Part shown: positions 14,466 through 26,351 of the stretch, piece after piece
How the letters are laid out: every line of letters starts with the position of its first letter
Position numbering within the stretch: position 1 is the first letter of the stretch
NCBI GenBank assembly: GCA_905233295.1
Contig: CAJODX010000008.1
Coordinates: 1 to 28,451, forward strand
From: an uncultured Synergistales bacterium
Lineage (GTDB): Bacteria > Synergistota > Synergistia > Synergistales > Aminobacteriaceae
Length of the DNA stretch: 28,451 nt
Direction of reading: 5' to 3'
Notes under the pieces: generated by a model
Seen by the model: only the letters and a program-made list of their open reading frames with translations
Databases searched by the model: none
Told to the model about the DNA's origin: nothing
Translations under genes and position numbers: made by a program

Positions 14466-14813
14466 ATGGAGCGTCTTTTAATAGATTTTTCACAGGTGTA
14501 TGGGCAAAACGGAACTCAAAGCGCGGCACGGAGCGTTTATAACACACAGGCAGCCAGGCTTAGAGATTCTGATAAAACACAGGAAACTCCGAGAATTTCA
14601 TTCGAGGATATGCTTTCAGACTCAATAAAAAATGTAAATAACCTTCAGCTAGAAGCCGAAAAAAAAGTTCGTGATATGGCTCTCGGCGATGTTGATGATA
14701 TTTCCGAAGTCGTGCTGGCATCATCAAGAGCTGACACGGCTTTGCGTCTGGTCATGGAAATGAGAAACAAGTTCCTTGACGCTTATCAGGCACTGTCGCG
14801 CATAACCGGCTAA
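14466..14813 (+). CDS. fliE: Flagellar hook-basal body protein FliE
   Basis: SFEDMLSDSIKNVNNLQ...GDVDDISEVVLASSRADTALRLVMEMRNKFLDAYQ; precedes fliF. Confidence 0.93.
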   Translation: MERLLIDFSQVYGQNGTQSAARSVYNTQAARLRDSDKTQETPRISFEDMLSDSIKNVNNLQLEAEKKVRDMALGDVDDISEVVLASSRADTALRLVMEMRNKFLDAYQALSRITG

Positions 14814-14833
14814 ATTAAAAAAATAAAATCATT

Positions 14834-16411
14834 ATGGACAGTATAAGACGCTGGACAGCCTCGTTCTTAAATTTCTGGGGTGCGTTAAAACTCTGGCAGA
14901 GAGCGTCGATAATTTTAGCGGTGCTTTTTGTTTTCGGAGGGCTAGGCGCGTTGATTTTTATGACGGGCACAACTAACTATGAGCCTTTGTACGCGGGTCT
15001 TGAAGTTGAAGATCAGGCGGCAATCGTTGATTATTTAAAAGAAAACAATCTGCCTTACAGACTTGACCCTAAAGCAAACGCAATTTTAATGCCGGGCGGC
15101 GCAGTTTATGAAACCCGATTGGCACTCGCACAGATGGGACTTCCTAAAGGCGGCACAACGGGCTTTGAAATTTTTGACGATTCCAAAATGGGAATGAGCG
15201 AATTTCAGCAGCGCATAGCCTACATGAGAGCAATCGAAGGTGAACTCGCACGAACGATTTCGCAGATGGCTTCCGTTGAAAACGCAAGAGTCAGTGTTGT
15301 CATTCCCGAACAGAGATTATTTTTGGAACAGCAGAAACCTTCGACAGCTTCAGTCCTGTTGAGATTAAGACAGGGCGCAACGATCGGACCTACTCAGGTA
15401 AAATCAATAATTCATCTTGTCGCGCACAGCGTTGACGGGCTTACTCCTGATTCAGTTACGGTCGTCGATACGAACGGACGAATTTTATCCGACATGATTT
15501 CGGATTCAATGATAATGTACAATCCGGACGGCTCAAACTCCGTTACGTCTGTTCAAAGAGAACTCGAACGCCAGCACGAACATGAACTTGAAAATAAAGT
15601 CCGCGCGATGCTCGAACAGGTTTTCGGTCCCGGCACAGCAGTTGTCAGAGTGAAAATAGATTTAGACTTTGACAAAAAAACGAGTTCATATGTTGAATAC
15701 ACCCCTAACCCCGAAACAGGAACAGGCGTTCCCCGCAGCAACGAACGTCAGGAAGAAAGCTACACAGGTCAGGGCAACCCCGTCAACGGAAATCCCGGCA
15801 CAACGACAAACATTCCGGGCTATGCAATCAACTCCAACACGGTTGAAAGTGAATATAACCGTTCAAACGCAACTACAAACTATGAAATTTCCACACGCAA
15901 GGGTGATCAGATCGTAACGCCCGGCGGTGTGCGGAGACTTTCAGCCTCTGTCCTTATTGATGACAGAAACAACGACATCTCTGAAGAAAGATTAGAGGCT
16001 TTGCAGGAAATAATTTCCTCGGCAATCGGCTTTAATAAAGAACGCGGAGACAGTCTTGTCGTTCACGCCATGAGATTCTCAACGGCTTTTGCGGACTCGA
16101 TGGCTGAACAGCTCCGTCAGGACAGAATGTGGAAAATAATTTACGGTTCTGTTGCTGCGTTCCTTGTGTTGTTGATCCTTGCCATAGCGTTCTATGTCTG
16201 GATCAGAATGAAACGCGCCAAGCTTGCTGTACAGGAAATCGAAGCCGAAGGAAAGAAAGTCCCGACGATTCAGGAAATGCTCACATCGCCCGATCTTCTT
16301 GCGTTCCAAGGAGAAATGGCGGTGCTTGAAGAACAGCTCAAAGCCTATGCAAAGAGTCATCCCGATGAAATCGCGACTCTTGTTAATGAATGGCTCTCAT
16401 CTGAAAATTAA
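14834..16411 (+). CDS. fliF: Flagellar MS-ring protein FliF
   Basis: YETRLALAQMGLP, GFEIFD, RAIEGELARTI, ARVSVVIPE, PSTASVLL; two TM segments. Confidence 0.96.
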   Translation: MDSIRRWTASFLNFWGALKLWQRASIILAVLFVFGGLGALIFMTGTTNYEPLYAGLEVEDQAAIVDYLKENNLPYRLDPKANAILMPGGAVYETRLALAQMGLPKGGTTGFEIFDDSKMGMSEFQQRIAYMRAIEGELARTISQMASVENARVSVVIPEQRLFLEQQKPSTASVLLRLRQGATIGPTQVKSIIHLVAHSVDGLTPDSVTVVDTNGRILSDMISDSMIMYNPDGSNSVTSVQRELERQHEHELENKVRAMLEQVFGPGTAVVRVKIDLDFDKKTSSYVEYTPNPETGTGVPRSNERQEESYTGQGNPVNGNPGTTTNIPGYAINSNTVESEYNRSNATTNYEISTRKGDQIVTPGGVRRLSASVLIDDRNNDISEERLEALQEIISSAIGFNKERGDSLVVHAMRFSTAFADSMAEQLRQDRMWKIIYGSVAAFLVLLILAIAFYVWIRMKRAKLAVQEIEAEGKKVPTIQEMLTSPDLLAFQGEMAVLEEQLKAYAKSHPDEIATLVNEWLSSEN

Positions 16412-16434
16412 TTTTTATAAAAGGAGTGCGTGAT

Positions 16435-17460
16435 ATGCCCAAAGAAGATAAATCTGATGCCAAAGGACTTACAGGACGAGAAAAAGTTGCGGTCTTGATG
16501 GTCGCGCTCGGGAGTGATGTTGCGCCTGAAGTTTATAAAAGGCTTGACGATTCGACGATTGAGTTAATCACGCTCGAAATAGCAAATTTAAGAAAGGTAT
16601 CGCCCGACGTAAAACTCAGCGTCCTGAAAGAAGCGCAGGAAATTTTAATGGCGCGTGAGTTTATGGCGCGCGGAGGTGTTGAATATGCAAGAGATGTTCT
16701 TGAAAAAGCTCTTGGTCCGGAGAGAGCTGCCTCGCTGCTTGCGAGAATTACGGCAAGTTTGCAGGTCAAACCGTTCGACTTTATGAGACATACAGATGCA
16801 GGTCAGATTCTCGGCTTCATTCAGAACGAACACCCGCAGACTATCGCTTTGATTCTCTCATATCTTGAACCTCAGCAGGCGGCAATGATATTGAGCGGAT
16901 TGAATCCTATTCTGCAGGCTGATGTTACAAAACGAATCGCCAACATGGACAGGATTACGCCCGAAGTTTTGAGGGAGGTTGAAAGAGTGCTTGAACGCAA
17001 ACTCAGCAGCATAATGGGTCAGGACTTCACCGTTGCCGGCGGCATTGATGCGGTTGTCGCCATTGTCAACAGCACCGACAGAGCAACAGAACGCAACATC
17101 ATGGAATATCTTGAAGAAAACGATCCCGAACTCGCCGAAGAAATTAAAAAGAGACTGTTCGTGTTCGAGGACTCAATGCGGCTTGATGACAGATCGCTCC
17201 AGCGCGTGCTGCGTGAGGTTGACATGAAAGAACTCAGCCTTGCACTCAAAGGCGCGACAGAAGACCTCAAGACGAAATATCTCAAGAACATGTCGAAACG
17301 TGCAGCGGAAATGTTACAGGAAGACATGGACTTTATGGGACCTGTGCGCGTGAAAGATGTCGAAGAGGCACAGCAGAAAGTCGTAAACATAATACGCGGC
17401 TTGGAGGAACAGGGCGAAATCGTCATTGCGTCCGGCGGAGGAGACGATATGATTGTCTAG
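16435..17460 (+). CDS. fliG: Flagellar motor switch protein FliG
   Basis: GREKVAVLMVALG, GGVEYARDVLEKALG, EHPQTIALILSY, MFxFED-like LFVFED, GPVRVKDVEEAQQKVV. ATG at 16435 follows an AAGGAG SD. Confidence 0.96.
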   Translation: MPKEDKSDAKGLTGREKVAVLMVALGSDVAPEVYKRLDDSTIELITLEIANLRKVSPDVKLSVLKEAQEILMAREFMARGGVEYARDVLEKALGPERAASLLARITASLQVKPFDFMRHTDAGQILGFIQNEHPQTIALILSYLEPQQAAMILSGLNPILQADVTKRIANMDRITPEVLREVERVLERKLSSIMGQDFTVAGGIDAVVAIVNSTDRATERNIMEYLEENDPELAEEIKKRLFVFEDSMRLDDRSLQRVLREVDMKELSLALKGATEDLKTKYLKNMSKRAAEMLQEDMDFMGPVRVKDVEEAQQKVVNIIRGLEEQGEIVIASGGGDDMIV

Positions 17461-18388
17461 TCTTGCCCATCAGCGCGTAATCCGAACAGCAAGACTTTTG
17501 CCGCAGGCTGTCAAGATTGGCGTGCTTGAAAGTGAGATTAAACAGTCCGGCACAAAACCAGCCGAACAGAAACAGAGTGCGCCGGAAAAAAAGCCCGCGC
17601 CGCGTCCGCCTGTACAAAAAGTTCAGGTGAAAATGCCTGAGCAAAATTCAAAGGAAATCGCAGAACTTACCGCTCAGATAAAAGCTTTAACGAACAGCTT
17701 AAGCAATGCTGAAGTTGCCAACGCTGAACTTACAGAGGCAAAAAATAAACTTGAAAGCGAAATCGGCGGCATTAAATCAGAATACGAAAAACGCAGAAAA
17801 ACTCTTGAATCCGAAGCTCAGTCAAACGCAAAAAAAATCGCTGATCAGGCTCGCGAAAAAGCTATGTCCGAAGGTCAGATTAAAGGCTACGAAGAAGGAC
17901 TGGCAAAAGCCCGCGCAGAAATCGAGCAGGAATATCTGAAAAAATTTTCAGCCCTTGCAGGTGTCATTGACGGTGTAGGAAAAAAACTTGACGAAAATTT
18001 TGCCGAACTCGTGAAACTTCATCAGCCTAAAATGATTCGTATGTGGACGGAAATGTTAAAACGAATGCTTCACCGTCAGGTTGAATTAAATCCGGATACA
18101 ATAGACAGCGTTTTGTCGGATTTACTGTCGAGGCTCAGTGATAAAAATCAGATTTTGATTTATGTTTCGCCCGATGATATTAAACATGTTGAGGAAGAAC
18201 TTGACGCGAAATTTCAGGAGGCTCTGCGCGGTTCAAAACGTGTTGAAGTGAAATCAGACCCGAATGTCCAGAACGGAAGCTGCATTGTAGAGACATCTCT
18301 CGGAGTTTATGACGCACGCTGGCGGACGCAAATGAATCAGATTGAAGCGGTTGTCGATGAAATTTTCCAGCAGTCTTCAAAAGGATAA
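17453..18388 (+). CDS. fliH: Flagellar assembly protein FliH
   Basis: AxxxG repeats (AREKAMSEGQIKGYEEG), C-terminal GSCIVETSLGVYDAR; lies between fliG and fliI. Confidence 0.88.
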   Translation: MSSLAHQRVIRTARLLPQAVKIGVLESEIKQSGTKPAEQKQSAPEKKPAPRPPVQKVQVKMPEQNSKEIAELTAQIKALTNSLSNAEVANAELTEAKNKLESEIGGIKSEYEKRRKTLESEAQSNAKKIADQAREKAMSEGQIKGYEEGLAKARAEIEQEYLKKFSALAGVIDGVGKKLDENFAELVKLHQPKMIRMWTEMLKRMLHRQVELNPDTIDSVLSDLLSRLSDKNQILIYVSPDDIKHVEEELDAKFQEALRGSKRVEVKSDPNVQNGSCIVETSLGVYDARWRTQMNQIEAVVDEIFQQSSKG

Positions 18389-18394
18389 CGACCA

Positions 18395-19747
18395 ATGAAC
18401 GATTTGGAAGACGTAGATTTATTTCAGTTATTTTCAGTTGATCTTCTCCAGAAACCTTTAATAAAAATTAACGGGCGGATAGTTCAGGTAGTCGGACTTG
18501 TCGCTGAGTCTCAAGGACCAGATGTCCGTGTAGGAGATTTATGCCATATATGTTTCAGAGACGGCTCGCACGAACTTGACGCTGAAGTTGTCGGCTGCCG
18601 TGATGACAGAGTTTTGTTGATGCCGCTGGGAGCTTTACAGGAAGTCGGACCTGGCTGTGATGTCGTTTCAACAAACAGACCTCTTGAAGTTCCGGTAGGC
18701 GAAGCTCTTTTAGGACGTGTTCTTGGCGGGCTTGGAAATCCCATTGACGATAAAGGACCGATAGCTGCGACAGATTTTTATCCGTTATACGCGACGCCGC
18801 CGCACCCGTTAAGAAGAAAAATGGTTGACACTCCGCTCTCTGTCGGAGTTCGGGTTGTTGACGGAATGCTGACGCTCGGCAAAGGTCAGAGAATCGGAAT
18901 TTTTGCAGGCTCAGGTGTCGGCAAAAGCACTTTGCTTGGAATGATGGCGAGATATACAACAGCTGATGTTAATGTAATTTCGTTAGTCGGTGAACGCGGA
19001 CGCGAGGTTCGTGAATTTATTGAACGTGATTTAGGACCTGAAGGACTGAAACGCTCTGTTTTAGTCATAGCGACTTCGGATCAGCCTGCGTTAATAAGAT
19101 TAAAATCCGCAATGACAGCTACGGCGATCGCCGAATATTTCCGCGATCAGGGCAAAGACGTTTTACTGATGATGGACACTGTAACGCGTGTGGCTCGTGC
19201 CCAGCGCGAAATCGGGCTTGCAATCGGCGAACCTCCTGCAACACGGGGCTACACGCCTTCAGTTTTTGAAATGCTGCCGAGATTGCTTGAGCGTGCCGGA
19301 GCTGGTGAAGTCGGAAGCATAACAGGAATTTACACAGTGCTTGTCGATGGCGATGATATGAACGAGCCTGTTGCTGATAACGTCCGCGGAATTTTGGACG
19401 GACACATAGTTTTGTCGCGAAAAATCGCCGCAAGAAATTTTTATCCTGCCGTCAGTGTTCTTGACAGTGTAAGCCGTGTCATGCCGGCGCTTGTGTCGCG
19501 TGAACATTTAGACGCTGCGGGACGTGTTCGGGATTTGCTCGCAACATATGCCGAAGCTGAAGATCTGATTAACATAGGCGCATATAAATCAGGTTCAAAT
19601 ATGCGGGTCGATTGGGCATTGGCAAACATGGAAGACGTCAGAAAATTTTTGTCGCAGAGAGTTGAAGACCCCACAGGCTTTGAAGAAACGGACAAAAGAT
19701 TATTAAATCTTGCGCCATATCCGACACAGCCGCAACAGGGAAATTAA
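18395..19747 (+). CDS. fliI: Flagellar export ATPase FliI
   Basis: GQRIGIFAGSGVGKSTLLGM (Walker A), LVGERGREVREF, GEPPATRGYTPS, VRGILDGHIVL. Confidence 0.96.
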   Translation: MNDLEDVDLFQLFSVDLLQKPLIKINGRIVQVVGLVAESQGPDVRVGDLCHICFRDGSHELDAEVVGCRDDRVLLMPLGALQEVGPGCDVVSTNRPLEVPVGEALLGRVLGGLGNPIDDKGPIAATDFYPLYATPPHPLRRKMVDTPLSVGVRVVDGMLTLGKGQRIGIFAGSGVGKSTLLGMMARYTTADVNVISLVGERGREVREFIERDLGPEGLKRSVLVIATSDQPALIRLKSAMTATAIAEYFRDQGKDVLLMMDTVTRVARAQREIGLAIGEPPATRGYTPSVFEMLPRLLERAGAGEVGSITGIYTVLVDGDDMNEPVADNVRGILDGHIVLSRKIAARNFYPAVSVLDSVSRVMPALVSREHLDAAGRVRDLLATYAEAEDLINIGAYKSGSNMRVDWALANMEDVRKFLSQRVEDPTGFEETDKRLLNLAPYPTQPQQGN

Positions 19748-19756
19748 ATTTTTATC

Positions 19757-20206
19757 ATGCAGCAGCGTATAGCAAGATTCAATCGAATATTAAAAATAAG
19801 GGAAGACAGCCGCCGCAACGAGCAGGCAATTTTAGCCGCAGAACGCAGCGAGGAGCGTGCAGTCATAAGCCACATAACAAAGCTTGAAAATGAAAAAACT
19901 CAGGCGATTCAAGACTTTGGAACGGCGGGCGAAAAAATGATTTCCGCAGCGGATTTATGGTTTCAAAGACAGTTCATTGACGCTATTAATACAGATATAA
20001 CAAAAGGCAAAGACTCATTGAATGAAGTCCGTAACAGAATTGTGAACACCGAAGCAAGACTTGTCGAAAAACATAAAGATGTTCGCGTCATGGAAACTTA
20101 TATAGAACATTTGAAAGAAATAGATTTTCAGGAACAGCTTGACATTGAACAGAATGAACTCGATGATGTCGCTACAATGCAATTTTCAAGGAAGGGAGCG
20201 TATTAA
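19757..20206 (+). CDS. fliJ: Flagellar export protein FliJ
   Basis: 149-aa coiled coil after fliI; RILKIRE...EQ; C-terminal EQNELDDVA. Confidence 0.85.
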   Translation: MQQRIARFNRILKIREDSRRNEQAILAAERSEERAVISHITKLENEKTQAIQDFGTAGEKMISAADLWFQRQFIDAINTDITKGKDSLNEVRNRIVNTEARLVEKHKDVRVMETYIEHLKEIDFQEQLDIEQNELDDVATMQFSRKGAY

Positions 20207-20208
20207 AA

Positions 20209-20775
20209 ATGATTGGACCAGACTTTACGAACATCAGCAGGGTTTTGAGCCGTATAGACGAAATCAATAGACAGTTCAATATGTACCAGCAGGACACCGC
20301 GCCTGTTAAAAGCAGATTCGTTGACGTTCTCGATGAAGTTCAGAACGGCAAAAAGAGAGTCCGTGTCAAAAATATTTCCGGAAAAACAAGTTACACGGAA
20401 CTTCAAAGCGTTATTGACGAATGTGCTGAAAAATATAACATCGACAACGAGCTTATAAGAGCAATGATTCAGGTTGAGTCGGGCTGGAACACTGACGCTG
20501 TTTCAAATAAAGGCGCACAGGGATTAATGCAGCTTATGCCGCGTACTGCAGCGATGTTAGGAGTTAAAAATCCTTTTGATCCCGAACAGAATATCGAAGG
20601 CGGAGTAAGATATATCTCGGATTTAACCGATAAATATCGCGGAGACATTGAAAAAGCTCTCGCGGCATATAACGCTGGACCTGCGCGAGTTGATTCCGGA
20701 GATATTCCTGACGTTTCAAAACGCTATGTAAAAAATATAATGGCGATTTACCGCAAATTAAGGGAGATGAGCTGA
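20209..20775 (+). CDS. Lytic transglycosylase (SLT domain)
   Basis: AMIQVESGWN (catalytic Glu), SNKGAQGLMQLMP, NIEGGVRYI, ALAAYNAGP. Confidence 0.93.
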   Translation: MIGPDFTNISRVLSRIDEINRQFNMYQQDTAPVKSRFVDVLDEVQNGKKRVRVKNISGKTSYTELQSVIDECAEKYNIDNELIRAMIQVESGWNTDAVSNKGAQGLMQLMPRTAAMLGVKNPFDPEQNIEGGVRYISDLTDKYRGDIEKALAAYNAGPARVDSGDIPDVSKRYVKNIMAIYRKLREMS

Positions 20776-20776
20776 T

Positions 20777-21487
20777 ATGGCTGAAGAAAGACCCGCACCG
20801 GCTCCGGCGGCTGAACAGAATCCTGCTCCTGCGAGCGAACCTGTTGTGCGGAAAAAGAAAAAGAAAAAAAAGCTGGGAAAATTAACTTTTTTATTTTGGC
20901 TTATCCTTCTCGGACTCGGAACGGCAACAGGAATGCACCTGAGCGGAATATGGGACGGAAGACCTTTATTCTGGACAATAATTCCGAATATTCCCTATGT
21001 TGGAAAACAGCTAGCGGATTTCTTTCATGTTCCGGAGTTTTACGCCCTGAGTGTCGGTGAACGCAGAGCCGTTGAACTTGAGCAGTGGCAGAGAAGGCTC
21101 GATGCACAGGAACGCGCTCTTCAGGACAGAGATACCGAGCAGATGGCAGTGTATGAAAGCCGTGAACTTGCACTCGTTGAACTTTCAAGAGACGTTTCAA
21201 GGCTTCAAAGACGTTTGCGTAATCAACAGGCTGAAGCCGCCGCGCAGGGTGATGCTGAAGGAGCTACGGCAGAAGAGCAGGAATTAATGAATCAGGTTGC
21301 ACGGACGTATCAGGATATGTCAGCACGAAACGCCGCCGCAATAGTTGAACAGCTCCGCGATGTCCTCGCAGTTGAGCTGATGATGAAGCTTCCAAACGAT
21401 GCAAGGGCTTCAATACTCGGAAAGTTAAAACCGACTAAAGCCGCGAGAATTACAGAATTAATGTCCCGACCTCAGCAACATAGATAA
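20777..21487 (+). CDS. MotE/YlxF-like flagellar protein (TM + coiled coil + MgtE-N-like domain)
   Basis: Poly-Lys, then a TM segment, then a coiled coil; YQDMSARNAAAIVEQL...ASILGKLKPTKAARI; located just before fliK. Confidence 0.8.
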   Translation: MAEERPAPAPAAEQNPAPASEPVVRKKKKKKKLGKLTFLFWLILLGLGTATGMHLSGIWDGRPLFWTIIPNIPYVGKQLADFFHVPEFYALSVGERRAVELEQWQRRLDAQERALQDRDTEQMAVYESRELALVELSRDVSRLQRRLRNQQAEAAAQGDAEGATAEEQELMNQVARTYQDMSARNAAAIVEQLRDVLAVELMMKLPNDARASILGKLKPTKAARITELMSRPQQHR

Positions 21488-21517
21488 AAATTAAAATTTT
21501 TACAGGAGGCATTGATC

Positions 21518-23152
21518 ATGGCGGATTTATTAACGTTCGTTGACATACAGACACAGGTATCGCCGCAGACAGTTTCACCGGCAGGCAATAATATTTCAGA
21601 AGGCGGCGCAGGCTTTTTTGATTCACTGATGAATGAAATCGCCGCTGATACAGAAATTTTGAATATTCAAATGCCTGAAATTGCAACGGAAATAACGGAT
21701 TCAAATTTAATAACGTTCAAAGGCGGAAAATTATTTTCAAATTCCGTCCTTGATATTATCACGGCGGACACGCAGGAAAACGTCGAAATAAATTTTAATG
21801 GCGAGGCTGAAAATCTTTTGGCGGCATTGAAAGATTCTTTTGCAAAAATTCAGGATGCACAGCCCGAAGTTTTTTACAGCGAGGAAGAAATCAATCTCAA
21901 TGAAGAATTTTCACAGCTTTTAAATCTCACGGACGAAGAACTCAGCGAAAAGTTAAATTCTTTGCCGGAAGATTTGAAAAACGAAATTAAAAATCTTATT
22001 GATGAAATAAATAACGCTCTCGAAAACGGCGAAGATTTTGTTTCCGTAAAGTCCGCGGTCGAAAAATTATCCGTGCTGTTCAACAGAAACGCAACGAAAA
22101 GCGAAATTTCTCCTGAAGCAAAAAATGACGGAAAAATTTTAGAAAAAGAAAAAAATACCGGCGAAAAACTGAAATCCGAAGCTGAAATCAATTCCGCAAA
22201 CGCTGCCGGAGCTGTTGCTGTAATGTCAAATGTAAATCCGGCTTCAGAAAATGTAAATTTTGAAACAAAATCACAAAATTCAAATGCGAACGATGAAACG
22301 TCAAAATTAAATTCAAAAATTTCACAGCACGTTCAGACACGCGAAATTAAAACTCAAAACGAAATTAAAGCCGGTGCTGAAACAGACTCTGTTGTGAAAT
22401 CTGACGAAGCCGCTGAAAATCCTGATGAAAAAAATCAAAATTTAACGGGCGAAAAACTTAATCTTGATGATGAATCAGAATCTGAAAAACAAAATTCAGA
22501 TTCAAATTTCGGTCAGGCACGCGAAAATTTTTCGGGTTCACATGGTCAGCAGCGTTCACGTAACGACAGCAGAAAAATCTCAAACGAAAATTCACTCGAC
22601 TATGAAGGCAGCGAAAATTCAACAGCGCACAAAACAAATCCGCACGGTAATTTTCAGAATTTTTTCGATGGAATCCTGAACAGCCGCCGGACATCTTCGA
22701 CAGCGTTATCACAGCCGTTGAACCTTCGTGAAAATTTTAATTTTAATCAGAGCGAAACTCTCAGGGACGGACTTGTCAATGTTGTGAGATTCATACGCGC
22801 TGACGGAGTTCAGAAAGCCAGCATCGTGATTGATCCTCCGGCACTCGGAAGAATTTCAGTTGAACTTACTTCAAATTCTTCTGGCGTTGAAGCTTCAATT
22901 AAAGTCGCAAGCGAGCAAATCCGACAATTAGTTCAAGACCAGTTGACCCAGCTTCGTATGAATTTGTCTGAACAAGGCGTGCAGGTCGCTGAATTTACTG
23001 TCGATATACAGCAGGACAGCAGTAACGGCGGAAATTCTCAAAACCCCGATCAGCAGAACAGACGCGAAAATTTCTTCACCGAAGCTGAGGAAGACGATGA
23101 AGAAGAATTTAGAATCGACTTAGAAGAAGGGCTATTATACTGGATAGCATAA
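21518..23152 (+). CDS. fliK: Hook-length control protein FliK
   Basis: Long low-complexity N-terminus; C-terminal ASIVIDPPALGRISVEL...LRMNLSEQGVQV; AGGAGG SD 8 nt before ATG at 21518. Confidence 0.9.
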   Translation: MADLLTFVDIQTQVSPQTVSPAGNNISEGGAGFFDSLMNEIAADTEILNIQMPEIATEITDSNLITFKGGKLFSNSVLDIITADTQENVEINFNGEAENLLAALKDSFAKIQDAQPEVFYSEEEINLNEEFSQLLNLTDEELSEKLNSLPEDLKNEIKNLIDEINNALENGEDFVSVKSAVEKLSVLFNRNATKSEISPEAKNDGKILEKEKNTGEKLKSEAEINSANAAGAVAVMSNVNPASENVNFETKSQNSNANDETSKLNSKISQHVQTREIKTQNEIKAGAETDSVVKSDEAAENPDEKNQNLTGEKLNLDDESESEKQNSDSNFGQARENFSGSHGQQRSRNDSRKISNENSLDYEGSENSTAHKTNPHGNFQNFFDGILNSRRTSSTALSQPLNLRENFNFNQSETLRDGLVNVVRFIRADGVQKASIVIDPPALGRISVELTSNSSGVEASIKVASEQIRQLVQDQLTQLRMNLSEQGVQVAEFTVDIQQDSSNGGNSQNPDQQNRRENFFTEAEEDDEEEFRIDLEEGLLYWIA

Positions 23153-23173: not shown

Positions 23174-23632
23174 ATGTCGGTAACGAGTACAAACAATTAT
23201 ACTAACCTTGCGGATTTGAATGTAACAGCGGCGAGTACTGCATCGTCAGCAACCTCGACTGCCTCGGCAGTTACGACTGCAACGAATAACGAACTCGGCA
23301 AAGACGCTTTTCTGAAATTATTAATCGCCGAGCTTTCCAATCAGGATCCTACCAACCCTGTTGAAGACAGAGAGTTTATTTCTCAGATGGCAACGTTCTC
23401 AACTCTTGAACAGATGCAGAATATGAACAAAACTATGGAAGGTATTGCCGAAACAAATAAATTTTCAGCTGTGAACTACATCGGCAAGGCGGTAGCGTTC
23501 ACAAATGATGAAGGCAAACAGGTTCCGGCACTCGTCAACGCGGTCTGGTTTGAAAACGGCAAAACTATTCTTGACACCAGCGAAGGCGATGTACCGCTCG
23601 AAAAAGTTGAAGGAATTTCAGAATTAAGCTGA
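23174..23632 (+). CDS. flgD: Hook capping protein FlgD
   Basis: LGKDAFLKLLIAELSNQDPTNPVEDREFISQMATFSTLEQM. Confidence 0.95.
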   Translation: MSVTSTNNYTNLADLNVTAASTASSATSTASAVTTATNNELGKDAFLKLLIAELSNQDPTNPVEDREFISQMATFSTLEQMQNMNKTMEGIAETNKFSAVNYIGKAVAFTNDEGKQVPALVNAVWFENGKTILDTSEGDVPLEKVEGISELS

Positions 23633-23732: not shown

Positions 23733-26351
23733 ATGCTAAGATCATTGATGACAGCAGTAACGGGTGTTCGCGCTCATCAGACAATGCTCGACGTTACGGG
23801 CAATAACATAGCCAACGCAAACACAACAGGCTTTAAAAAAGATTCAACGATTTTCGCCGATTTAATGTATCAGGCGAACAAATACGCTTCAGGCGCAAAC
23901 GACACACGCGGCGGTATCAACCCGGCACAGGTCGGTTTAGGTGTCAGCGTTTCCGCAATCGAAACGATTCATACTCAAGGTTCAGGCTCATATACGGGCA
24001 ACGCTTCAGATATGATGATTCAGGACAAAGGCTTCTTTGTCTATAAAGATGGCAACACTCAGCTTTTCAGCCGTTCGGGCGCATTAGTCCTTGATGGGAA
24101 CAGCGACATGGTAATGTCCGGACAGGGCTACCAGCTTCAGGGCTATAAAATGGAAGAAACTCCGCTTGACGGCTATCAGCAGGCGGCGGAACTTTCAACC
24201 GTTAATATTCCGCTCGGACAGAAAATCGACGCTAAGGCAACTACTCAGGTAGATTACCAGTGCAACCTTGACAGCAGAACGAGCGCGTATCTTTCATACG
24301 GCTTTGCAGATTTGCCTTACAATGCTTTCGCGGCATGGAACGGAAGCGAAACCGGCAAAGCTTCAATTCCAATCGCAGGCTCGAATTACGACATCAGCTT
24401 TTTAACAACGGGCGTGCGTTCAAGTCAGGTTACCTACAACCTTGACAGCACTGGCGCAACAACAAACGCTACGGATATAAACTATCTTGATATTGAACTC
24501 GCAAACGGAACGGCAACAACGACATTAAAATTTGACATTACCGACGTTAGCAATGATACAGGACTTCCTGTTCTGAGCCTTCCGAAACTCAAGGCTGATG
24601 CTGCCGGAGGGGCTTCATATCCAACAGCTACGACAAACAGTGCAGATACGAATTTTGTTGGCTGGTTTGATACGAGAGTCAGCACCGTTACAGCCGCAGC
24701 AACAGGAATATACGACGGCACTAATGCTTACCCGACAGCGACACAGGAGGAACTCGATAAATATTTTGTTCCTGTTTACAGTTTTCCCGGTCAGACACCT
24801 CCTCAGTATTTTGCCGCGCAGTATGACAGCGAAACAGGAGATTTGAAAATCCGCAAACTGACTCTTCTCAACGGTACAACCGAAGTTTCGGCTACGGCTG
24901 GACAGACCCTTCAGCAGGACATTACAGCGCGTGCAGTAGCTACACCTCCTGCAGGCACGACTGCTATTACGCAGATAAAGCTGGAGCCGTCAAGTTTCAC
25001 TTACAATCTCAATGACAATATGAACTACACAAACTTCCAGCTCAAGGGTTCGCCGACAGTTGCATATATTAACGATACCGGTGCTGTGGCATATGGAGTT
25101 CAGGAAATCGAATACAATTTTGTCGCTGAGTTTGACGAAAGCACAACACGACAGGTCAATGACGGTTCAAGCCTTTCCAAAACCGCCGCAGATCTGAAGC
25201 TCTGGTATTATGGCTACAGCAACGCCGATTTGAACGGCTTCGCAGCAACGACAGAAATGAAAATGCACAGAATGGAAGCTACCGTGTATTTCAATGCTGA
25301 CGGAACATTCGACTCTGTTGACTGGGTATCAGGCAACGACGATGCTCCTATGGGCTATCGAATCACTGATGATCCTGTTACGATAGGCACAGACACGTTT
25401 ACAGGAGCGAATTTCCAGATTTCAGTCGGCTCATCGAGCAAAACTTCAAGCGCAACAGACACCTTGAATTTCAGATCCGCAAAGAACCTTGACACTCCCG
25501 GACCTGCTGACAGCGAAGGAGTATGGGACACCGTAGGCACAACGTATCAGGGCGGCTATCACGCAACAAAACTCACGATTTACGATGACAACGGCAAAGA
25601 ACATACACTCGAAGTTACGTTCAAAAAAATCACAGAAAACCGTTGGCGCTGGGAGGCGTTCCTCGTTGAAAGAAACGAAAGCACAGGACTTGATGAACTT
25701 GTGAACATAATCCCGTCTCCAAGGTCGGGCGAAATTGAATTTGACGGCTCAGGACGCATCAGCAACGCATTCGCTGATGACAACGACAAGTCAAGACGCG
25801 GCGATAACAATGACAGATACCCGAACGCTGAAGTCGAAATTGAAATCCCGTTCAGCCTTAACGGTCAGCCCAACAGCGTTGTAACTCTGAATTTCGGCGG
25901 CGGAGTCGGTAGCGGCGGCACTGCGCTTGACGGCGTTACTCAGTTTGCTTCAGAGACGACAACAAAGCCCGTTTATCAGGACGGCTACACGATGGGAGTT
26001 TTGAAGAGCTATTCAGTCGCAGTCAACGGCTTAATCACAGGTTCATATGACAACGGCGTGAACATTCCGCTTTACCGCGTGGCTCTCGCAACATTTGCGA
26101 ACGAGCAGGGGCTTGAAAAAGTCGGCAACACGATGTTCAAGGCAACAGTGAACTCCGGCAACGCGAATATTGACGGCGCGACAACAAACGGCAAAGGCTC
26201 GATAATGTCGCAGTATGTAGAGATGTCAAACGTTGACCTTACGGAAGAGTTTACGCACCTGATAATCGCTCAGAGAGGTTTCCAGGCAAACGCAAGAACG
26301 GTTACGGTTAGCGATCAGATTCTTGAAGAAGTCGTGAACCTGAAGAGATAA
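23733..26351 (+). CDS. flgE: Flagellar hook protein FlgE, giant (872 aa)
   Basis: MLRSLMTAVTGVRAHQTMLDVTGNNIANANTTGFK; FlaE-type TIYDDNGKEHTLEVTFKK; C-terminal EMSNVDLTEEFTHLIIAQRGFQANAR. Confidence 0.95.
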   Translation: MLRSLMTAVTGVRAHQTMLDVTGNNIANANTTGFKKDSTIFADLMYQANKYASGANDTRGGINPAQVGLGVSVSAIETIHTQGSGSYTGNASDMMIQDKGFFVYKDGNTQLFSRSGALVLDGNSDMVMSGQGYQLQGYKMEETPLDGYQQAAELSTVNIPLGQKIDAKATTQVDYQCNLDSRTSAYLSYGFADLPYNAFAAWNGSETGKASIPIAGSNYDISFLTTGVRSSQVTYNLDSTGATTNATDINYLDIELANGTATTTLKFDITDVSNDTGLPVLSLPKLKADAAGGASYPTATTNSADTNFVGWFDTRVSTVTAAATGIYDGTNAYPTATQEELDKYFVPVYSFPGQTPPQYFAAQYDSETGDLKIRKLTLLNGTTEVSATAGQTLQQDITARAVATPPAGTTAITQIKLEPSSFTYNLNDNMNYTNFQLKGSPTVAYINDTGAVAYGVQEIEYNFVAEFDESTTRQVNDGSSLSKTAADLKLWYYGYSNADLNGFAATTEMKMHRMEATVYFNADGTFDSVDWVSGNDDAPMGYRITDDPVTIGTDTFTGANFQISVGSSSKTSSATDTLNFRSAKNLDTPGPADSEGVWDTVGTTYQGGYHATKLTIYDDNGKEHTLEVTFKKITENRWRWEAFLVERNESTGLDELVNIIPSPRSGEIEFDGSGRISNAFADDNDKSRRGDNNDRYPNAEVEIEIPFSLNGQPNSVVTLNFGGGVGSGGTALDGVTQFASETTTKPVYQDGYTMGVLKSYSVAVNGLITGSYDNGVNIPLYRVALATFANEQGLEKVGNTMFKATVNSGNANIDGATTNGKGSIMSQYVEMSNVDLTEEFTHLIIAQRGFQANARTVTVSDQILEEVVNLKR

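Follow-up and report, generated by a model that had tools for sequence, protein, structure and literature searches.

Hook protein gene and its candidate crosslink site

The stretch of DNA analysed here (the window) consists of 28,451 nucleotides from an uncultured Synergistales bacterium (contig CAJODX010000008.1 of assembly GCA_905233295.1). At positions 23733–26351 it carries the gene flgE, which encodes a flagellar hook protein of 872 amino acids (aa); this gene, and every other feature of the window described below, lies on the forward (+) strand. A sequence-only reading of the window had proposed that this FlgE keeps the residues by which the hook subunits of spirochaetes link themselves covalently through lysinoalanine (Lal). 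The identity of the protein was borne out by Pfam, which found Flg_bb_rod, FlgE_D2 and Flg_bbr_C above the cut-off in the 872-aa open reading frame (ORF), and LlgE_F_G_D1 below it. In addition, the best sequence and fold matches in the PDB were FlgE proteins.

The residues in question lie in two parts of the protein. The linker between domains D1 and D2, together with the first strand of D2, extends from N158 to R182 (NIPLGQK...YQCNLDSR) and is encoded at 24204–24278, of which positions 24213–24278 translate as LGQKIDAKATTQVDYQCNLDSR. K164, the predicted nucleophile, is specified by the codon AAA at 24222–24224, and C177-N178-L179 by the codons TGC AAC CTT at 24261–24269. The predicted precursor of dehydroalanine, C177 (TGC, 24261–24263), is the sole cysteine of the 872-aa protein and is separated from K164 by a spacing of 13 residues. 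The later segment VTQFASETTTKPVYQDGY, at 25935–25988, contains T743-T744-K745 (25959–25967), T743 being the middle threonine of ETTTK (codon 25959–25961). ORF translation and codon read-out confirmed all coordinates, residue numbers and the 13-residue spacing as they had been given in the sequence-only reading.

When the protein was compared with the PDB sequences by phmmer, window residues 92–183 aligned with the FlgE chain 6ndx_B of Treponema denticola, with a one-residue T. denticola insertion near residue 144 as the only gap. The stretch NIPLGQKIDAKATTQVDYQCNLDSR was ungapped in this alignment and had 19 of 25 residues identical, counting the cysteine that reads as alanine in that crosslinked chain. 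The T. denticola numbering was fixed by the title of entry 6ndw (D2 construct A168-T344) and by the residues named in an earlier study from the same laboratory (doi 10.1101/2024.11.01.621575), and it fits a chain offset of 90. With this numbering, K164, C177, N178, L179, T743 and K745 align to T. denticola K165, C178, N179, L180, T334 and K336, respectively; the threonine of this set (T334, and T507 in Thermanaerovibrio acidaminovorans) serves to activate the dehydroalanine. The first three correspondences, and the supposition that the later segment supplies the equivalent of T334, had been put forward from the sequence before any alignment and were upheld by it. In T. denticola, the pocket of the dehydroalanine is surrounded by I162, A177, T334 and K336 (doi 10.1101/2024.11.01.621575). 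In the same PDB comparison, the lysine and cysteine columns were occupied by L and I in Salmonella and by I and A in Campylobacter jejuni, and the N-L pair that follows was common to all. It is therefore the lysine and the cysteine, and not the whole motif, that discriminate.

A Synergistota protein with this site has been studied experimentally by Lynch, Charon and Crane in a 2026 preprint, which reports lysinoalanine crosslinking of the FlgE of Thermanaerovibrio acidaminovorans in vitro and in vivo (K167/C180/T507; doi 10.64898/2026.05.22.727228). About 30,000 non-spirochaete FlgE sequences were screened by these authors for CNL, the linker lysine and the threonine; 175 candidates were obtained, 96 of them from Synergistota, and all motile Synergistota in their tree were predicted to be crosslinkers. 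The T. acidaminovorans protein formed multimers of high molecular weight that resisted sodium dodecyl sulfate (SDS), and it did so faster with NEM (N-ethylmaleimide) and with Ellman's reagent (DTNB). Crosslinking was lost in the C180A variant and cut by about 40% in T507A, while K167A retained small residual complexes which the authors ascribed to other lysines. Lal and dehydroalanine peptides were detected by mass spectrometry (MS), and the link was also found in cell lysates (doi 10.64898/2026.05.22.727228). The sequence-only reading had cautioned that the motif might already have been noticed in Synergistota, and according to this preprint the caution was right.

The 636-aa FlgE of genome G029 is the protein of the preprint, since the tryptic peptide reported there, YVEGPLGDINIPVGQK, occupies its residues 152–167 and CNL is found at 180. 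BLASTP aligned the window FlgE to it with 51% identity over residues 2–191 and 44% over residues 610–872, the part between remaining unaligned. Both sites were ungapped, so that K164 corresponds to K167, C177-N178-L179 to C180-N181-L182, T743 to T507 and K745 to K509; T507, the first threonine of its TTK, aligns with both T334 of T. denticola and T743 of the window. T. acidaminovorans is an externally flagellated member of the same order, and its FlgE shares with that of the window the hexapeptide CNLDSR and the presence of extra outer domains at the same point of D2. They differ in length (636 versus 872 aa), the insert of the window protein being about twice as long and without sequence alignment to the other. 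The residue preceding the cysteine is also different, R in T. acidaminovorans and Q in the window, and consequently the tryptic peptide with the cysteine is longer in the latter. Moreover, T. acidaminovorans is a thermophilic isolate, whereas the window organism is an uncultured Synergistaceae of gut or rumen type.

Conservation of the site and structural model

Conservation was assessed at increasing evolutionary distances. Among 120 homologues with 48–100% identity, K164 and C177 were present in all (120/120), and N178 and L179 in 119 each. T742, T743, T744 and K745 were found in the 119 homologues that cover their region (119/119), and K168, a lysine four residues after K164, was kept in 92 of the 120. 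An alignment of 84 sequences added FlgEs from seven further Synergistales families, giving eight families in all; K164, C177, T743, T744 and K745 were invariant in it (84/84), with a mean column identity of 43% and a highly variable insert. All the named relatives from ruminant metagenome-assembled genomes (MAGs) that cover the site have it.

The background frequency of the two residues was taken from a HMMER scan of residues 1–200 against 1.84 billion cluster representatives, from which the 150 nearest clusters (50% identity) were retained. The 150 sequences aligned were the window protein and the 149 nearest cluster representatives. Lysine and cysteine occurred together (K+C) in 45 of the 150 and lysine with serine in 10, most of the others having T, V, Q or S with G, N, K or H. 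Restricting the count to 95 full-length FlgEs, 36 had both cysteine and lysine, 2 cysteine without lysine, 10 lysine without cysteine, and 47 neither. The naive Fisher p value of this distribution, 2e-14, is not independent of relatedness and is descriptive only. In an independent-pairs test for covariation of the two residues, well-supported branches yielded four such pairs, a number that does not suffice for significance. The third site read TTK in 27 of the 36 K+C proteins.

A tree was built from the D0/D1 core of the 95 FlgEs with the site columns removed. The clade into which the window protein fell comprised 30 rows and was supported (Shimodaira–Hasegawa-like approximate likelihood ratio test, SH-aLRT, 97); 26 of its rows were K+C, and it included the T. 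acidaminovorans protein. Outside this Synergistota clade K+C was scattered, and the well-supported branches forced at least five changes. Given that the representatives carry no taxonomy, neither a single origin of K+C shared with spirochaetes nor horizontal transfer can be argued from this tree.

An AlphaFold2 model of the monomer, obtained from the 84-sequence alignment, had a mean predicted local distance difference test (pLDDT) value of 77.9, with values of 81–90 in the site region and 71 in the TTTK region; the D0 termini were low, as expected for a monomer. With Foldseek and VIA-align, the best matches of the model were FlgE structures (Salmonella, Pseudomonas and Campylobacter), with Z between 20 and 22. 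The T. denticola D2 crystal domains 6ndt (the dehydroalanine intermediate), 6ndv and 6ndw superposed on model residues 167..753 with a root-mean-square deviation (rmsd) of 2.8–3.0 Å over 152–157 of 177 residues (Z 13.5–14.8). On the basis of this superposition, D2 is made up of residues about 167–186 and 608–753. Residues about 187–607 (24291–25553), delimited by the model and by the BLASTP gap, form a beta-rich insert of about 425 aa that is looped out of D2 in the manner of outer, D3/D4-like domains. The insert was modelled at mostly high pLDDT and departs from D2 at the topological point where the T. acidaminovorans and C. jejuni proteins carry their additional domains. Its length varies strongly among the relatives, whose FlgEs range from 804 to 899 aa.

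Predicted lysinoalanine crosslinking and alternative explanations

In spirochaetes, the reaction has been described as an assembly driven by D0, followed by beta-elimination of the cysteine to dehydroalanine and by aza-Michael addition of the lysine, and N179 is needed for Lal formation in vivo (PMC10691653). By analogy with the proven relative, and in view of the residues described above, we consider that the window FlgE probably welds to its neighbouring subunits through a K164–C177 lysinoalanine, with a probability of about 80%. Assembly of the subunits into an external flagellar hook would be mediated by their D0 helices. C177, located where D2 begins, would then be converted to dehydroalanine by beta-elimination with loss of sulfide, N178 assisting the elimination and T743 and K745 lining the pocket, and the epsilon-amine of K164, contributed by the neighbouring subunit's D1-D2 linker, would add to the dehydroalanine. 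No helper enzyme would take part, and the outcome would be an SDS-resistant and mechanically reinforced hook. The FlgE of T. denticola (PDB 6NDX, 6NDT, 6NDW), in which Lal joins K165 and C178, has the same catalytic set of K, C-N-L, T and K. It differs from the window protein in its length (463 versus 872 aa), in belonging to the periplasmic flagella of a spirochaete and in having no outer-domain insert.

Several points weigh against this interpretation. The chemistry has been shown in T. denticola and in T. acidaminovorans, and for the 872-aa protein it is predicted by analogy with them; the experimental paper on the latter species is, besides, a preprint. Two neighbours of the pocket differ from those of T. 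denticola, with Q176 for A177 and D733 for N324. The insert begins only a few residues past the CNLDSR strand and, given this proximity and its being about twice as long as that of the proven protein, the surface geometry could differ. The accessibility of the site and the reach between K164 and C177 of adjoining subunits in the assembled hook are likewise predictions, the structural model being one of the monomer. Finally, a protein that adjoins the window FlgE in the tree, within the K+C-rich clade, has neither residue: P0128 (L045:3684-5747; 687 aa, 'Synergistaceae bacterium' at NCBI) carries T and G in these positions, plus TAK.

Because P0128 is devoid of both K and C, Synergistaceae hook proteins can exist without the link. 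Within the Synergistota clade, the lysine and/or the cysteine are lost in P0127 (which has E and N), P0128, P0151, P0153 and P0155, and three of these, P0127, P0128 and P0153, bear the annotation of Synergistaceae MAG proteins. Neither flgD nor any other recognisable flagellar gene was found upstream of the P0128 gene. P0128 may be a stand-alone paralogue, and the FlgEs of the clade without K and/or C may be extra paralogues. These FlgEs qualify the claim that crosslinking is to be predicted for every motile member of Synergistota (doi 10.64898/2026.05.22.727228).

The same residues could also have been inherited from a crosslinking ancestor, the link being poor or absent in this giant FlgE and the hook being reinforced by the outer domains, as by D3/D4 in C. 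jejuni. The size of the insert, roughly twice that of T. acidaminovorans, is in line with this idea, as is the loss of K and C in some Synergistaceae FlgEs. The FlgE of C. jejuni (PDB 5JXL, 5AZ4), which over the whole protein ranks first among the matches of the window FlgE both by sequence and with Foldseek, is likewise giant (851 aa) and has large outer domains that are inserted in D2. Its K and C positions are occupied by I and A, so that there is no Lal site; it makes no such link and is reinforced by D3/D4 contacts only, and D3/D4 are cited as stabilising in the preprint as well (doi 10.64898/2026.05.22.727228). However, one would expect useless residues to drift, which in P0128 they have done jointly, whereas K164, C177, T743 and K745 are invariant over the 120 and the 84 sequences despite the variable outer surface, and C177 is retained as the only cysteine. 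A relic site thus seems improbable to us.

It must also be considered that dehydroalanine might form at C177 and react with a partner other than K164, for instance K168, four residues downstream, possibly with several isoforms, or that the cysteine and the lysine might have a non-covalent, structural role. Leptospira interrogans FlgE has a lysine in the linker, like the window protein, and the crosslink chemistry that is predicted for the latter's hook, and its K145, K148 and K166 give rise to several Lal isoforms (PMC10691653); its donor is Ser179, in contrast to the Cys-type site of the window, and it has several lysine partners. Weak complexes are retained by the K167A variant of T. acidaminovorans (doi 10.64898/2026.05.22.727228), and K168 is present in the window protein and in most of its homologues. 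Nevertheless, K164 is invariant and K168 is not, MS identified the aligned lysine as the partner in both of the Cys-type proteins that have been studied, and among the full-length FlgEs cysteine is accompanied by lysine in 36 cases and lacks it in 2. Taken together, these data make another partner, or a purely structural role, very unlikely. As for the idea that a short motif of a conserved region is matched by chance, N-L and the A-T-T around it are indeed general FlgE features. But K and C are seldom found except in particular clades, TTK goes with them in three quarters of the K+C proteins, and the window FlgE belongs to a well-supported clade of predominantly K+C proteins that includes the proven one. 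This alternative is extremely unlikely, and in our view the alignment and the conservation exclude chance resemblance.

If the K164–C177 weld does form, it could coexist with large (about 425 aa) and fast-evolving outer domains, the hook being reinforced in two independent ways, and the existence of paralogues without K and C, such as P0128, might mean that lineages or cells build either welded or unwelded hooks. We offer this wider scenario as speculation and, as a whole, as a rather unlikely one.

Welding of the hook by Lal has long been seen as a speciality of spirochaetes linked to their periplasmic flagella, and it has been pursued as a spirochaete-specific drug target. The report of Lal in externally flagellated Synergistota alters this spirochaete-only view (doi 10.64898/2026.05.22.727228). 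Since the phenomenon, the conservation of the motif throughout the phylum and the experimental proof have all been public since 2026, the novelty of the site in the window is low. What is new is that the site coexists with a D2 insert of about 425 aa, and that loss of K and C has occurred in a few FlgE variants of Synergistaceae. With the window, the phylum of the known crosslinkers gains a gut-associated, uncultured branch with strict conservation of the site, which is carried there by the group's largest hook subunits. This supports the idea of a modification shared by motile Synergistota in general and is relevant to the specificity of Lal inhibitors; by itself, the window raises no new question.

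Host genome, flagellar operon and additional flgE genes

Contig C8, which is the window, comes from a genome bin of 1.47 Mb in 187 contigs that is 83.7% complete. The proteins nearest to its FlgE are annotated 'Synergistaceae bacterium', and the named genome records with a 60–70% identical FlgE are MAGs from the gut of goat, sheep, reindeer and red deer, labelled Synergistaceae, Synergistales or 'uncultured Fretibacterium sp.'. The genome holds at least five flagellin genes. The host is a motile non-spirochaete, namely an uncultured Synergistaceae of gut or rumen type; that it was not a spirochaete had been correctly supposed in the sequence-only reading. Genes with a flagellin N domain, at least five or six, are located on contigs C168, C135, C43, C66, C152 and C18 of this genome (G000). 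Their frames are unusually long, between 530 and 814 aa with one of 1389 aa, and one of them contains an in-frame TAA.

In the window, flgE ends an intact fliE-to-flgE flagellar operon, the last genes of which are in the order fliK-flgD-flgE. The hook cap gene flgD is located at 23174–23632 (Pfam FlgD, E 1.1e-26) and fliK, for hook-length control, at 21512–23152 (Pfam Flg_hook, E 2.4e-16). The region 14466–21487 contains, according to Pfam, fliE, fliF, fliG, fliH, fliI, fliJ, a gene for an SLT lytic transglycosylase and another for a protein with an MgtE_N-like region. The gene with the SLT domain (20209–20775) lies inside the operon, between fliJ and fliK, and its product may be the rod-penetration muramidase, encoded in this case apart from FlgJ.

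Additional flgE genes were observed in related genomes. The second flgE copies or fragments of the same-genus genomes G002 and G009 also retain K and CNL. In the MAG G002, the two flgE contigs (L047, G002:C43, and L048, G002:C58) break at the identical residue (LSTVNIPLGQK...), and the MAG G009 has two flgE genes (L046, G009:C76). These same-genus duplicates suggest paralogues or co-assembled strains that would have a common N-terminus and a differing insert. In another Synergistales family, the loci L014 (G021:C14:28000-37100) and L019 (G030:C8:25200-33000) carry three flgE paralogues each in tandem, with sizes of 927/692, 649 and 430/432 aa, all of them with CNL. The linker lysine of the short copy is 24 residues upstream of the cysteine, within a longer loop, and TTR takes the place of TTK. 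A Synergistaceae-type FlgE with 60% identity and with K, CNL and TTTK is also encoded on a contig of 2436 bp (L037, JAFSTO010000055.1), which carries the bin label 'Paludibacteraceae bacterium' and is probably mis-binned.

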